Source: Nitrospiraceae bacterium | GTDB lineage: Bacteria; Nitrospirota; Nitrospiria; Nitrospirales; UBA8639 | Assembly: GCA_020632595.1 (NCBI GenBank) | Contig: JACKFF010000006.1 | Coordinates: 1,460-65,459, forward strand | Length of the DNA stretch: 64,000 bases | Reading direction: 5' to 3' | Shown here: positions 34,267 to 63,821 of the stretch, in pieces | How the letters are laid out: every line of letters starts with the position of its first letter | How positions within the stretch are numbered: position 1 is the stretch's first letter | The notes under the pieces: model-generated | Told to the model about the DNA's origin: nothing | Seen by the model: only the letters and a program-made list of their open reading frames with translations | Database searches by the model: none | Program-made: the position numbers and the translations under genes

Positions 34267-34436
34267 CATGAGGGGTAAGGCGTGAACCGAAAAATTTCGT
34301 TTCTTGCTCATGGCTCTTCGCGCTTCACATGTTCAGCATCCACGAGGAAAGATGCCCGTTGAACAATGTCATTCATGACGGAACAATTCTCGATCCCTGT
34401 TTTATTCCTCATGTCTGACCTCCCTCCCTTTACGAC
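34267..34436 (+). repeat. intergenic hairpin-family sequences downstream of the flgE terminator
   Basis: CATGAGGGGTAAGGCGTGAA ... CTTCGCGCTTCACATG, and further on CTGACCTCCCTCCCTTTAC. Confidence 0.4.
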
Positions 34437-34622
34437 TTAGCGTCTCAGGTTCCCATAGACGGACCTGTCAAAGGTTCCCGCGAATTGCCAGGAAAATGAC
34501 GAAAAGGAAGGTCTCATGTTGTTGCAGAGCCCAAGAGATGTCAGGCGCGACTGCGGAGGAAACATATGCAGATTCAGTGTATTCCAGGATTAGCCGCAGC
34601 GTGTCTACGTAGAAACGTGGAG

Positions 34623-34637
34623 TGGCACAAAGGTTGC
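34623..34637 (+). promoter_or_regulatory. sigma54 (-24/-12) promoter for fliL operon
   Basis: TGGCAC-N5(AAAGG)-TTGC, an exact consensus, 58 nt upstream of the fliL ATG (34695). Confidence 0.7.
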
Positions 34638-34694
34638 TGACTTGGGAGGGGGAACGTGAAGGTCCAAAAATTTTTTAGCGTGTGAGGTTGAAGG

Positions 34695-35189
34695 ATGGCT
34701 GAAGAGGATGACAAAGGGGAAACTCCCGTTAAAGCCGGGGCCGGAAAAAAAATGTTGTTGATTGTTATCGCGGGCGTTCTTCTTCTCGGTGGAGGGGGAG
34801 GCGCAGCCTGGTATTTTATGAGTGGCCAGGAGGAGAAGCCGGCTGTGTCCGATGAGCATGCCAAAGCCGAGACCGTTCATGAAGAGCCCGGGCCGGTGAT
34901 GGAGTTAGAGCCCTTTCTTCTAAATTTAGCGGATCGGGAGGAGCTGCGATTTTTAAAAGTAAGCATTAAACTCGAGTTGGACCGGCCTGAAGAAAAAACG
35001 GATTATCAACACAAAATCCCGGCCATTCGCGACGCGTTGCTGGTGTTACTGAGTAGCAAAGAGTCGCAATTACTCAGAACAGTGAACGGGAAGCGCCGGG
35101 TGCGAGAAGAAATTATGACGCGGGTGAACGGCGTCATGAGTAAAGGGAAAGTGGCCAATGTGTATTTTACTGATTTTATTATTCAGTAG
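34695..35189 (+). CDS. fliL: flagellar basal body-associated protein FliL
   Basis: Single TM (LLIVIAGVLLLGGGG) and the FLLNLAD...FLKVSIKLEL...VYFTDFIIQ FliL signature. Confidence 0.85.
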   Translation: MAEEDDKGETPVKAGAGKKMLLIVIAGVLLLGGGGGAAWYFMSGQEEKPAVSDEHAKAETVHEEPGPVMELEPFLLNLADREELRFLKVSIKLELDRPEEKTDYQHKIPAIRDALLVLLSSKESQLLRTVNGKRRVREEIMTRVNGVMSKGKVANVYFTDFIIQ

Positions 35190-35281
35190 GGCCTGAGGAG
35201 AAAGACGGAAGAGTCCGGAGTCAGGAATCAGAAAGAGGAGAGAAGAGGCAGCAGGGCTGTTTCTTTGTGCCGCGTCCCAAC

Positions 35282-36271
35282 ATGGAAAAAATTCTTAGTC
35301 AGGATGAAGTTGATGCCCTCCTACGGGGCGTGTCCGACGGCGGCGTGGATACGGAACCTGAAGACCCGGTAGGTGCCGAGCTACAGGATGGACCGGTTCC
35401 GTATGATTTGGGAAATCAGGAATGGGTCGTTCGCGGGCGAATGCCGACCCTGGATGTGATCCATCAGCAATTTTCGCGTGGGTTCCGCCTCTCTTTAAGT
35501 GACGTACTTCGAAAAACCGCCGAGGTGACGGTCACGAACCAAACGGTAATGAAGTTCGGAGAGTTCACCAAACGTCTTCCCATCCCGGCCTACCTCCAGA
35601 TTATCTCCATGGAGCCTCTTCGCGGCTTAGCGATGATCGCCACGGATGCGGCGACGGTGTATTTGCTGGTTGATCATTTTTTCGGGGGAGCCGGCCAGAC
35701 CCATGTGAAACCGGAAGGGCAGGATTTTACCATCATTGAGCAGCGCGTGATGAAGAAGGTCATGCTGATGGGATTGGGGAATCTTCAAAAAGCCTGGGAC
35801 CCTGTCCAAAAACTTCTCATCAATGCGGTTCGTGTAGAAATGAATCCTCAGTTGGCGGCCATTGTGTTGCCGGCGGATATCGTCATTGTGGTCACCTTGG
35901 GCATCGAATTAGGCAATTCGGTAGGGGATCTCCATCTCTGTCTGCCCTATGCGATGTTGGAACCGATTCGAGAACGTCTGCAGGTGAGTTTCCAGGGAGA
36001 CTCGTTTGAAACGGATCATGGATGGTTGAAACGATTTTCAGCCAGGCTGAAGGAGGCCTATGTCACCCTGTCCGTGTGTTTGGGAGAAACGGAAATCTCG
36101 GTGGAGGAATTGATGCAATTTTCACCGGGAGATGTGGTCACGTTGAATCAAGGGACCACCCAGCTGCTTACAGCCACGGTGGAAGGGGTGCCAAAGTTTC
36201 TTGGTTCACCGGGAACGACAAAGGGCATGCAATCATTTCAGATTAAGGACATCATTCTGACGAGGGAGTAA
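35282..36271 (+). CDS. fliM: flagellar motor switch protein FliM
   Basis: N-terminal CheY-P binding peptide ILSQDEVDALL. A GTG at 35267 is an alternative start. Confidence 0.9.
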   Translation: MEKILSQDEVDALLRGVSDGGVDTEPEDPVGAELQDGPVPYDLGNQEWVVRGRMPTLDVIHQQFSRGFRLSLSDVLRKTAEVTVTNQTVMKFGEFTKRLPIPAYLQIISMEPLRGLAMIATDAATVYLLVDHFFGGAGQTHVKPEGQDFTIIEQRVMKKVMLMGLGNLQKAWDPVQKLLINAVRVEMNPQLAAIVLPADIVIVVTLGIELGNSVGDLHLCLPYAMLEPIRERLQVSFQGDSFETDHGWLKRFSARLKEAYVTLSVCLGETEISVEELMQFSPGDVVTLNQGTTQLLTATVEGVPKFLGSPGTTKGMQSFQIKDIILTRE

Positions 36272-36334
36272 GACCCGGTGAACGGGATTAGGTGCCGGCC
36301 AGTTACTGATTGTGGAAAAACCCGGAGATGAACG

Positions 36335-62045: not shown

Positions 62046-62133
62046 GGAAGGGTGAGTAGCAAGGCGTAAAGGGGATGTGCGGTGTTTTTTTCACGACTCC
62101 TTCCTGTTCACTCCTCACTATCAATCCCTTTAC
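62046..62133 (+). repeat. hairpin element in the cheR leader (2)
   Basis: GGAAGGGTGAGTAGCAAGGCGTAAAGGGGATGTG ... CACGACTCCTTCCTGTTCACTCCTCACTATCAATCCCTTTAC. Confidence 0.55.
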
Positions 62134-62168
62134 TTTTTGTTTTGGATCAATTGACGATAAAGGACAAT

Positions 62169-63008
62169 ATGATGACGGCAACGTTGACTGATAATGAATT
62201 TGAACAGTTTAAACACTTAATTTATCAGCAGGTCGGTATTACGCTCGATGCCCCAAAAAAAACGCTCTTAGTTTCTCGTTTGGGGAAACGGCTTCGGGAT
62301 CTTCACCTTTCCTCGTATCAGGCGTATTACGACTGTGTGAGCGGGAAAGGCGGGGAAGAAGAGTTGATGAAGTTGTTGGATCTTGTGTCAACGAATAAAA
62401 CTGATTTTTATCGGGAGCCTGTGCATTTTGATTTTCTCCGCGACCAGGTTCTTTCAGAGGTGCAATCGGCCAAGACCTTGAGAATTTGGTCTTCCGCGTC
62501 CTCTTCCGGGGAAGAACCCTATACGATTGCCATGACCCTGTCTGATGGCATTGCCGATATTAATCGATGGGACATCAAAATTCTCGCCTCCGATATTTCT
62601 ACGCGGGTATTGGCAAAGGCTTCCTCGGGTATCTATGAGGAAGAGCGGGTGAGTCAACTTCCCATTGATTTGGTGAAACGACATTTTCTCCGTGGGAAAG
62701 GCCCGCAAGCGGGAAAGCTGCAGGTGCGCCCTCAGATCGCGCGTCTTGTGGCCTTTCGACGGATAAATTTGATGGACCCGACCTTTCCTATACGGAGTCA
62801 ATTGGATGTAATCTTTTGTCGGAATGTTATGATTTATTTTGATCGTCCCACGCAAGCCAAACTCATGGAGAAGTTTTTCCGATATCTCCGCCCTGGTGGA
62901 TATTTGTTTATCGGACATTCAGAAAGTTTGCAGTGGATCGACCATCAATTTACATATCTGCGCCCGACCATTTATCAAAAACCGATCAGCGTGAAAAGTG
63001 AGGCGTAG
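62169..63008 (+). CDS. cheR: chemotaxis methyltransferase CheR
   Basis: FEQFKHLIYQQVGI...TDFYREP...IWSSASSSGEEPYTIAM...IFCRNVMIYFD. Confidence 0.9.
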   Translation: MMTATLTDNEFEQFKHLIYQQVGITLDAPKKTLLVSRLGKRLRDLHLSSYQAYYDCVSGKGGEEELMKLLDLVSTNKTDFYREPVHFDFLRDQVLSEVQSAKTLRIWSSASSSGEEPYTIAMTLSDGIADINRWDIKILASDISTRVLAKASSGIYEEERVSQLPIDLVKRHFLRGKGPQAGKLQVRPQIARLVAFRRINLMDPTFPIRSQLDVIFCRNVMIYFDRPTQAKLMEKFFRYLRPGGYLFIGHSESLQWIDHQFTYLRPTIYQKPISVKSEA

Positions 63009-63098
63009 GGGAGAGGGCAAAGGGGAGAGTGGTTAGGCGTGGAGGATCGGAAGCACTCATCACTTTTCTCATGCTCCTGACTGTTCACTCCTTACTTT
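62997..63098 (+). repeat. intergenic hairpin element (cheR/cheD spacer)
   Basis: The stop is embedded in GTGAGGCGTAGGGGAGAGGG...GGTTAGGCGTGGAGG. The pyrimidine arm ends TGTTCACTCCTTACTTT, a 17-mer identical to 36861-36877. Confidence 0.6.
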
Positions 63099-63107
63099 AA
63101 GGAAATT

Positions 63108-63716
63108 ATGTCATCTACAGGATTGATGGAATTTGGGCATATTCGGCGAATGCAGGATACCCGCTTCCCCTACGAAGTGGCCGTCATTCTCCCAGGTGAA
63201 TATTTTGTAAGCCGGGAGCCCAAAGTCGTCTATACGGTATTAGGTTCCTGTATCTCAGTGTGTCTGCGAGATCCAGAAGCCGGCGTGGGAGGGATGAATC
63301 ATTTCATGTTAGCAGCTCCTTCCAATATTGAAGGACACGATAATTGGGCAGATTCGGGACGATACGGGAGCTTTGCCATGGAAATGCTGATGAACGATAT
63401 TTTCAAGCGCGGCGGAAAAAAAGACCGCCTCGAAGCGAAAGTCTTTGGCGGGGGAAAGATTTATGATGGCACCATCGATATTGGGGCCCAAAATGCCGCT
63501 TGGGCTCTCGCCTTTTTGGAACAGGAGGGTCTGTCGCCTATTAAAGCCGATGTCGGAGATGTCTGTCCTCGGAAGGTGTACTATTTCACCGATTCGGGAA
63601 AAGTGCTCATGAAAAAACTCGACCGTGTCGTGGCGAGTGCGATTGCGCAGGAGGAGGGGCAGTATCGGAAGAAACTTCAACATGCTCCTGTGCAGTCGGA
63701 CGTCACACTTTTTTGA
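63108..63716 (+). CDS. cheD: chemoreceptor glutamine deamidase CheD
   Basis: TVLGSCISVCLRDPEAGVGGMNHFMLA...KVFGGG. Confidence 0.9.
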   Translation: MSSTGLMEFGHIRRMQDTRFPYEVAVILPGEYFVSREPKVVYTVLGSCISVCLRDPEAGVGGMNHFMLAAPSNIEGHDNWADSGRYGSFAMEMLMNDIFKRGGKKDRLEAKVFGGGKIYDGTIDIGAQNAAWALAFLEQEGLSPIKADVGDVCPRKVYYFTDSGKVLMKKLDRVVASAIAQEEGQYRKKLQHAPVQSDVTLF

Positions 63717-63724
63717 GGAAACAC

Positions 63725-63821
63725 GAGAGGCGTAAGGTGTAAGGCGTGAGGAGAGAGGACTGTCGCGAGAGAAAACCATGTTGTTTTTTGCTGCTGACGC
63801 CTCACTGTTTACTCTTTACGG
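63725..63821 (+). repeat. intergenic hairpin element (cheD/cheB spacer)
   Basis: GAGAGGCGTAAGGTGTAAGGCGTGAGGAGAGAGG ... CTGACGCCTCACTGTTTACTCTTTACGG. Confidence 0.6.

Follow-up and report, generated by a model that had tools for sequence, protein, structure and literature searches.

Heptad hairpins between flagellar and chemotaxis genes of a Nitrospira genome as probable copies of a cassette resembling rRNA intervening sequences

In a 64-kb stretch of a Nitrospira genome (~51% GC; referred to as the window), many spacers between the late flagellar and chemotaxis genes hold a hairpin composed of a purine-rich arm, a loop and a pyrimidine-rich arm, which raises the question of whether these hairpins are RNA structures that serve the operons around them or copies of a repeat element that came to lie between the genes. 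Nearly all genes from ~16 to 64 kb are on the + strand and form flagellar and chemotaxis operons. The initial annotation had described the purine arm-loop-pyrimidine arm architecture in at least 15 spacers at 34-64 kb; this was recovered in ~12-13 of the 15, the remainder showing weak folds or nothing, and the observation as a whole is partly confirmed. Based on the heptad anatomy of the arms and a related cassette in the cheY/cheA spacer, the hairpins are likely to be copies of a selfish cassette resembling the intervening sequences (IVS) of rRNA genes. What is new is an IVS/S23p-type element in mRNA spacers; the kind of element itself is not categorically new. The full element would consist of a 5' purine heptad array (G-T-R-A-R-R-M), a PF05635/TIGR02436 four-helix-bundle gene and a complementary 3' pyrimidine heptad array, and the window would then contain one decayed full copy (cheY/cheA) and about a dozen copies that carry no open reading frame (ORF).

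Heptad arrays and a decayed cassette between cheY and cheA

The arms of the hairpins are tandem heptads of the unit G-T-(G/A)-A-(G/A)-(G/A)-(A/C), i.e., G-T-R-A-R-R-M, a period of 7 that the initial annotation had missed. The window was compared with a set of 39 related loci/genomes (Nitrospirales), labelled L001 onward; the 56 hairpins that they yield together with the window show a base identity of 0.61 at lag 7 and 0.58 at lag 14, vs. ~0.32 at other lags. Repeat grouping within the window yields a 3'-arm family of nine copies (CTCCTCATTGTTCACTCCTTACTTT, 68-92% identity over 25 nt) and two families of 5' arms, and the 10-mer GCGTGAGGAG is indeed exact at 38122, 48281 and 63744. GTRAGG words are a feature of intergenic rather than coding DNA (2.94 vs. 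0.26 per kb, 11x), with 19 of the 21 intergenic matches located beyond 34 kb. The spacers of 0-16.5 kb, where the motif had been reported as rare or absent, contained no comparable hairpin in what is a small sample, the spacer DNA before 34 kb amounting to only ~2.7 kb. The distance from a stop codon to the element behind it is 0-14 nt, and several elements leave 8-25 nt before the start codon that follows.

In 94% of units the fourth base is an A; positions 2-4 of the consensus unit are therefore usually TAA or TGA, and three units give a stop in every frame because 7 = 1 mod 3. Stops in all three frames were found in 48-50% of arms (5' arm read forward, 3' arm from the other strand) vs. ~10% of shuffles. 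The idea that the period of 7 serves to place stops in all three frames is thus partly supported; the heptads of Gemmatirosa and Nostoc described below, which have no stops, show that it is not universal. Genes also end inside the arrays: as had been noticed earlier for two of them, the stops at 47222 and 48284 fall within ACGTGAGG and GCGTGAGG, and the heptads GCGTGAA-AAGTGAG-GCGTAGG supply the final six cheR codons along with the TAG stop.

The cheY/cheA spacer (50567-51168) contains a longer form of the element, likewise missed by the initial annotation, in which pieces of a four-helix-bundle protein are found in two frames. The minimum free energy structure of the whole spacer (-172.7 kcal/mol) is closed by 50572-50598 pairing with 51125-51155, and the pseudogene between these arms was matched by Pfam (E 4e-4, 39 aa), by a purpose-built hidden Markov model (E 9e-13) and by nhmmer (E 8e-20). 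In at least 12 Nitrospirales genomes, the same spacer is taken up by an ORF that is intact and lies on the operon strand. The intact ORFs match PF05635 ('23S rRNA-intervening sequence protein', E 1e-33 to 1e-39), TIGR02436 and PDB 2GSC (E 2e-33), show weak similarity to Avd, a protein of diversity-generating retroelements (DGR), and have the same heptad arms on either side (5' AAGACGTGAGGCGTG..., 3' ...CCTTACGCCTCACGA). The dN/dS ratio of the PF05635 protein is 0.1-0.2, pointing to purifying selection. At the same site, L010, L036, L038, L006 and L039 display progressive internal deletions, down to bare arms.

Cassette proteins from the cheY/cheA site of L001 (20004-20327) and L002 (19981-20352) share 57% identity, while the proteins encoded on either side are, in both hosts, ~87-99% identical to those of the window (FlhA 99%); whole cassettes are exchanged or replaced between close relatives. 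Additionally, two cassette subfamilies are spread over the host tree, in one of which the 3' heptad arm encodes the protein's C-terminus (SHPLRLTPHEK).

Only ORF-bearing copies have an orientation, the cheY/cheA cassette being co-directional with the operon. In the Nitrospirales, 54 hairpins are purine-first and 2 are pyrimidine-first (n=56); the initial annotation had taken 'purine arm first relative to transcription' to be an orientation, a claim that does not stand because the reverse complement of a purine-loop-pyrimidine repeat is again purine-loop-pyrimidine. Outside of the cheY/cheA spacers, nhmmer detected no PF05635 ORF relic in the ORF-less hairpins, so that what ties them to the cassette is the heptads and termini they share with it. 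A resemblance of the fliP/fliQ loop to the 3' end of the ORF, seen by eye, was not significant.

Folding was assessed by comparing each trimmed element with 200 dinucleotide shuffles and expressing the result as a z-score (Table 1). The expectation that the spacers fold more stably than shuffled sequence held for nine elements, with z of about -2 or lower (best -4.54), and failed for six weak ones. Among the spacers listed in the initial annotation, the one after fliA (45900-45975) folds no better than its shuffles (z 0.08), and nothing was found after the third gene for a methyl-accepting chemotaxis protein (MCP) (58270).

Turnover among the Nitrospirales and occurrence in other bacteria

The FlhA protein of the window (40640-42748) has 99% identity to its counterparts in Nitrospira sp. 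DJ (L001; CP058931.1) and Nitrospira sp. T9, and the Nitrospirales relatives are graded in FlhA identity down to 74% with an unchanged gene order. The orthologous spacers in these genomes retain the same architecture with hypervariable arms and polymorphic occupancy. At the flhB/flhA junction the distribution is bimodal: the junction is empty (<40 nt) in 17 of 39 genomes and is otherwise a spacer of 136-235 nt. Relative to the closest relatives, 4-fold degenerate sites of the window differ by 0.12-0.20 and non-hairpin spacer is ~90% identical, whereas the arms are barely alignable, with 7- and 13-nt indels and a divergence far above that of the 4-fold sites. Judging by these alignments, the arms evolve by gain and loss of heptad units.

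In the fliP/fliQ spacer, the 5' arm varies in heptad number, and the apical loop (GTGTATCGAATGCCGGGG.GCAACGATC) and 3' arm are conserved in the relatives, indicating that this element was inherited in place. At the flhB/flhA junction of L015 and L026 (~9790-10000), the 3'-terminal 24 nt or more of flhB (TTTGCGAAATCC...ATCAAGC) are present on both sides of the insert. This long target duplication is significant and leaves the C-terminus of FlhB as well as the former initiation region of flhA intact; for the clade of the window itself, no significant target duplication was seen at flhB/flhA (score 18 vs. a shuffle maximum of 26).

Two samples were used to extend the analysis to other bacteria, one based on the heptads and the other on the protein. 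A metagenome scan for (GTRAGGN)3 yielded 120 loci of 35-70% GC; 122 arrays were considered, of which 26 were too near a contig end to evaluate and 96 were scored. A complementary (NCCTYAC)n partner was located downstream in 26 of the 96 scored arrays and upstream in 2. A PF05635 ORF lay directly 3' of the purine array in 4 of the 120 loci. In a crude survey with rough ORF calling, the frames on either side of ORF-less metagenome hairpins were co-directional in 9 cases, convergent in 4 and divergent in 4, and the presence of hairpins in all gene orientations fits a symmetric, context-tolerant element. Elements of this kind probably also break metagenome assemblies, as hinted at by two weak observations: the 26 of 122 arrays that lie near a contig end, and the mostly short PF05635-bearing contigs, which resemble most of the collection in this respect.

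The protein-based sample comprised 12 PF05635 genes picked by protein similarity alone. A purine heptad array lies directly upstream of 10 of the 12, and one (L223) has a downstream pyrimidine array only. A clear complementary array is found at or overlapping the 3' end in ~9 (L201, L209, L212, L215/216, L217, L220, L221b, L224 and L225), with no clear downstream partner in L218. At least 7 of the 12 genes are co-directional with both neighbours, near the upstream stop and just before the next start. Their settings include an interval between amidohydrolase and AIM24-family genes, a polysaccharide-synthesis operon, the position after a sensor kinase gene, and the junction of two NADH dehydrogenase genes of complex I type (domains Complex1_51K and NADH-G_4Fe-4S_3; read as nuoF/nuoG-like). 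Elements of this family are thus not confined to flagellar genes.

Lineages differ in their heptad: most have GTRAGGN, Calothrix has GGGTGTA/CTACACC, Gemmatirosa GGCAGGA/CTCCTGC and L221b GAGCAG/CTCCNTG. The four-helix-bundle genes with other arrays, annotated as 'S23 ribosomal protein', come from cultured cyanobacteria and a member of the Gemmatimonadetes and are those of a Calothrix plasmid (L224, AP018208.1), a Gemmatirosa plasmid (L225) and Nostoc PCC 7120 pCC7120gamma (L223; CTTCTGC). The PF05635/TIGR02436 family is very large, with at least 7,995 matches in a search that scored 8,000 candidates. As a family of unexplained function, it would gain a genomic context, being bracketed by inverted heptad arrays. 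A search of the available literature returned no description of PF05635 genes as heptad-bracketed intercistronic cassettes, nor of a link between PF05635 and heptad hairpins in operons.

Comparison with known elements and competing explanations

The closest known counterpart is the S23p-type IVS of 23S rRNA, found in Coxiella burnetii, Leptospira and Brucella. In C. burnetii this 'selfish' element measures 428-444 nt and lies in helix 45; inverted repeats at its borders pair into a 28-bp stem, its S23p ORF is decaying, and upstream of the ORF are two to three tandem purine-rich GACAGAT heptamers, their number varying by strain; RNase III excises it with a cut at the start of the first repeat, and S23p is apparently not made (PMC4990558). 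The Nitrospira elements likewise have terminal inverted repeats that would form a long stem around the element. The ORF prone to decay has its counterpart in the cheY/cheA copy (a pseudogene here, intact in relatives), the variable heptamer number in the 7- and 13-nt unit differences among relatives, and the sporadic presence among strains in the empty flhB/flhA junctions. All structural features of the S23p-type IVS have a match except the rRNA location: the IVS reside in helix 9, 25 or 45 of 16S or 23S rRNA, whereas the Nitrospira copies are all between protein-coding genes, and an Rfam scan of the whole window gave 0 families at the gathering score, with no rRNA found. The Nitrospira elements differ further in having many copies per region, most of them ORF-less, in the heptad GTRAGGN rather than GACAGAT, and in that excision by RNase III is known for the IVS and would here be presumed. 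ORF-less rRNA IVS, known from certain strains of Salmonella, Yersinia and Campylobacter, are stem-loops of 90-150 nt that are transcribed as part of a longer RNA from which RNase III removes them (PMC4990558). They parallel the ORF-less Nitrospira copies in size and stem-loop form and differ in rRNA location, and the part of that source concerned with them reports no heptad period.

If this assignment is correct, an orphan repeat family in Nitrospira, a key nitrite oxidiser, is tied to a known element type, and IVS, until now known as parasites of rRNA genes, may be part of a far larger population residing between protein-coding cistrons. The elements would be co-transcribed in the flagellar and chemotaxis polycistrons, their arms annealing to imperfect double-stranded RNA stems of 25-45 bp that bring the stop of the upstream gene close to the ribosome-binding site of the next one. 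Because the hairpin draws stop and start together, inserts may be tolerated even in tightly coupled operons. RNase III would cut the stem as in the Coxiella 23S rRNA IVS, excising the loop or ORF and dividing the mRNA between cistrons; the prediction that follows is cleavage of flagellar and chemotaxis polycistrons at the stems. We regard such cleavage in vivo, argued by analogy, as evenly poised. The stop-rich, purine-first design would end translation from either direction, a property that is only partly general, some lineages having heptads without stops. The net effect is probably near neutral and possibly uncouples the stability of neighbouring cistrons; an adaptive regulatory role seems rather unlikely.

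Several points weigh against assigning the hairpins to a selfish, IVS-like family. Thermodynamically, several copies are ordinary (47217-47297, 45900-45975, 50041-50106, 56276-56412, 62045-62125 and 63009-63100). Covariation is weak as well: compensatory change among orthologous fliP/fliQ hairpins, which had been proposed as a test, was seen in 4 of 16 pairs, with heptad indels upsetting the alignment. Conservation of the fliP/fliQ loop points to vertical inheritance rather than repeated insertion. The absence of an ORF relic from the ORF-less hairpins belongs here too, as does the lack of any transposase or mobility enzyme seen with the elements, the searches being aimed at PF05635, with 64 kb of this genome covered and no systematic RAYT scan made. 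Both RNase III cleavage and transcription through the elements are presumed. There is also no excess of G-U over A-C mismatches in the stems and hence no sign of selection on an RNA stem. The initial annotation had counted G-U pairs toward complementarity; isolated G-U (148), A-C (155) and transversion (180) mismatches are about equally frequent, like unfiltered mutation, and G-U wobble was rejected as proof of an RNA-strand-specific stem. The better folding of the + strand than the - strand is found in control spacers too, owing to GC skew. Lastly, copies are concentrated at 34-64 kb and absent at 0-16 kb, which random selfish spread would not predict, albeit with the small spacer sample noted above, and the clustering in motility operons could reflect regulation rather than chance.

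This clustering is the starting point for the strongest alternative, in which the hairpins are purpose-built intercistronic RNA elements that arose at their present sites as regulators of the late flagellar and chemotaxis operons, acting on differential mRNA stability, on processing or on translational coupling, with the PF05635 gene as an incidental passenger at one site. Their placement close to stops and starts and the occupancy of the same spacers in distant Nitrospirales would agree with such a role. So would the last 3'-arm heptad, CTCCTTAC, which can instead of joining the long stem pair locally with the downstream Shine-Dalgarno (SD) sequence AAGGAG / TAAGGA of cheA and cheD (51143-51161, 63089-63103); such a hairpin could mask the ribosome-binding site if RNase III were to remove the 5' arm. 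However, many relatives have no element at the same junctions, the arms are hypervariable with little compensatory change and no G-U preference, and in other bacteria the same elements are found in unrelated operons and between convergent or divergent genes, making this explanation unlikely. The 3' arm CACTCCTTAC also resembles the 16S 3' end CACCTCCTTA, and anti-SD mimicry was considered on that account.

Alternatively, the heptad arrays could be binding sites for the PF05635 pentamer or for a different RNA-binding protein, for instance CsrA, which recognises GGA, with the ORF-less hairpins forming a trans regulon. Avd binds structured RNA within the DGR complex, and it is a relative of PF05635 according to profile matches. 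The heptad sequence varies by lineage along with the PF05635 gene (GTRAGGN, GGGTGTA, GGCAGGA, GAGCAG, GACAGAT), the protein is under purifying selection, and the arms are GGA-rich. Yet the window's own gene is a pseudogene and a dozen hairpins persist, and the Coxiella S23p is apparently not made (PMC4990558). We consider this explanation, which is compatible with the IVS-like cassette, to be quite improbable in its own right.

REP/BIME/REPIN and the MITE-like families Correia, ERIC and RUP (MITE, miniature inverted-repeat transposable element) are small non-coding palindromes of intergenic and intercistronic DNA that are co-transcribed, some of them being cut by RNase III or stabilising mRNA. 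The initial annotation had offered, besides an intercistronic RNA structure, a REP/MITE-like element with an orientation bias; of these readings the repeat element is the closer, yet the family does not seem to be REP or a classical MITE. Mobilisation of a REP/REPIN-type family by RAYT (a Y1 transposase) would account for many imperfect intergenic palindromes, and the words GT(A/G)(A/G) are loosely like the REP GTAG head. No conserved 20-40-nt unit headed by GTAG was found: the arms are heptad arrays, the copies are 50-140 nt long with differing heptad numbers and the limited similarity of the 3'-arm family given above, and, unlike REP/MITE-like palindromes, they lack a conserved unit sequence and a transposase partner. 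The gene in the autonomous form encodes a four-helix bundle and not a transposase, in the PF05635-aimed searches described above, leaving mobilisation by RAYT very improbable. Of MITE features, inverted termini are present, the target duplication is confined to L015/L026, and the parent cassette gene is not a transposase. Intrinsic terminators or attenuators would also be stable stem-loops between genes, and can practically be dismissed since no T-run follows any 3' arm and a terminator scan calls none of the elements yet finds the flgE terminator (34190-34223). A CRISPR array was rejected, as it already had been by the initial annotation, the repeats being inverted, irregular and bounded by genes.

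Cyanobacterial STRR heptamers are tandem intergenic repeats. Similar TAACTGA direct repeats have been described between genes of Beggiatoaceae, cyanobacteria and Bacteroidetes (MacGregor 2015, PMC4679880). Both share with the Nitrospira arms 7-nt tandem units near gene ends, stop codons and a patchy distribution, and units carrying stop codons cannot extend far into genes. In contrast to the Nitrospira unit GTRARRM, which occurs in inverted pairs, they are direct repeats of another sequence without a partner arm or hairpin, and no link to PF05635 has been reported for them. Cyanobacterial PF05635 genes do have inverted heptad arrays (L224), a hint that cassettes of this type include some of the heptamer repeat families of cyanobacteria; they may also be the source of the puzzling intergenic heptamer repeats reported from cyanobacteria and further phyla.

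Extending the IVS-like reading to its limit, PF05635/TIGR02436 genes with lineage-specific inverted heptad arrays might form a large, undescribed class of cassettes at cistron junctions ('mRNA intervening sequences') in many phyla, with rRNA IVS as a special case and orphan heptad hairpins or arrays as ORF-less remnants. In its boldest version, an Avd-like pentamer would recognise its own heptad RNA, and the element would spread or persist via the excised RNA. This generalisation is put forward tentatively, as we think it has less than an even chance of being correct.

Individual elements and neighbouring features

The elements of the window are collected in Table 1. The ORF-less copies, about a dozen in number, are 60-140 nt long with predicted stems of 25-45 bp.

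Table 1. Elements of the hairpin family in the 64-kb window, with free energies and z-scores from the shuffle comparison (folded interval in brackets where it differs).
Feature	Position	Strand	Structure and fold
Heptad hairpin GAGGGGTAAGGCGTGAA ... CGCGCTTCAC	34262-34327		Directly behind flgE terminator; -21 kcal/mol, z -2.35 (34262-34330)
fliN/fliO ORF-less element	36764-36882		-46.1 kcal/mol, z -4.54; 0/200 shuffles as stable
fliN/fliO 5' arm	~36764-36804		GTGAGGA ATGAGGA GTAATGT GTGAGGA GTAGGAT
fliN/fliO 3' arm	~36846-36882		TCCTTCC TCCTCAT TGTTCAC TCCTTAC
fliP/fliQ ORF-less element	38102-38238		Starts at first base after fliP stop; -51.9 kcal/mol, z -4.28
flhB/flhA ORF-less element	40437-40557		ACGTGAA GCGTGAA AAGTGAA AAGGAAG ... 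TTTTCAC TTTTGGC TTTCCAC; z -2.29
Doubtful copy	47220-47293		Only the 7-bp clamp ACGTGAGG/CCTCACG pairs; z 0.01 (47217-47297); upstream TGA (47222-47224) in first word
ORF-less element after response-regulator/kinase gene	48279-48356		-26.7 kcal/mol, z -2.54 (48279-48362); gene stop (48284-48286) within GCGTGAGGAG
Weak element after first MCP gene	50042-50100		z -0.35 (50041-50106); 3' arm decayed
Full-length cassette, cheY/cheA spacer	50572-51155	+	584 nt; outer arms 50572-50598 / 51125-51155 pair across ~530 nt
Frameshifted PF05635/TIGR02436 pseudogene (four-helix bundle; S23p, Avd-like)	50725-50979	+	Pieces in two frames; profile matches
Hairpin at 3' part of cheY/cheA spacer	51095-51160		z -2.46
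cheA/cheW element	53283-53369		-25 kcal/mol, z -2.09; 3' arm partly decayed
Element after second MCP gene	56277-56406		z -1.38 (56276-56412); 3' arm 56384-56408
Short cheR-leader element GAGGCTGAAGGGTGAGTGG ... TTTCACGCCTCAC	61802-61852		z -2.13 (61800-61856)
Second, weaker cheR-leader element	62045-62121		3' arm 62097-62121; z -0.81 (62045-62125)
cheR/cheD element	62990-63098		z -0.72 (63009-63100)
cheD/cheB element	63731-63820		CGTAAGG TGTAAGG CGTGAGG ... CCTCACT GTTTACT CTTTACG; -31.8 kcal/mol, z -1.98

Several elements with a decayed or weakly folding partner keep recognisable arms. The 5' heptads of the element after the first MCP gene are clear (AGAC GTGAGGG GTGAAGG GGCAGGC GTGAGGT) and differ from those of L001 by a 13-nt heptad indel, the 5' arm of the cheA/cheW element is strong (GTGGAAG GTTAGGA ATGAGGA GTAAGGA GGTAAAG), and the 3' arm of the cheR/cheD element (63074-63098) has 92% identity to 36853-36877 in the fliN/fliO element. 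The elements also mislead the calling of ORF starts. The first-ATG ORF call of the third MCP gene (56362) includes the 3' arm of the preceding element, and the first-start call of cheR (62082) precedes the 3' arm of the second leader element; with the calls beginning before or inside 3' arms, the true starts of both genes must be further downstream.

The flgE gene is followed by a strong intrinsic terminator (34190-34223) with a 15-bp stem, 11 GC pairs and a T-run, and since the first hairpin of the table lies directly behind it, this hairpin may be outside the main transcript. Upstream of the flgB region, purine heptad-like runs are present at 22930-22995 (GGTGAGAGAGTTGAGGAGTACGAGG) and 23585-23612 (GTGAACCCGTGAAGCGTGAGG) with no convincing partner arm (z 0.52); these may be solo or decayed arms.

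The tandem MCP paralogs at 54035-56272 and 56362-58269 have 86% identity over 300 nt and share a near-identical C-terminus and the junction TAGAAGAC (56248-56277 vs. 58245-58274), and a hairpin follows the first one only. Further downstream, a 115-nt segment (58945-59059) is duplicated 2.6 kb away at 61533-61647 with 87% identity. It consists of the 3' end of the gene at 58438-59043 plus a GC-rich hairpin (hairpins at 59067-59108 and 61655-61700) and includes no heptad elements; the hairpin of the second copy is followed by T7 and resembles an ordinary intrinsic terminator.

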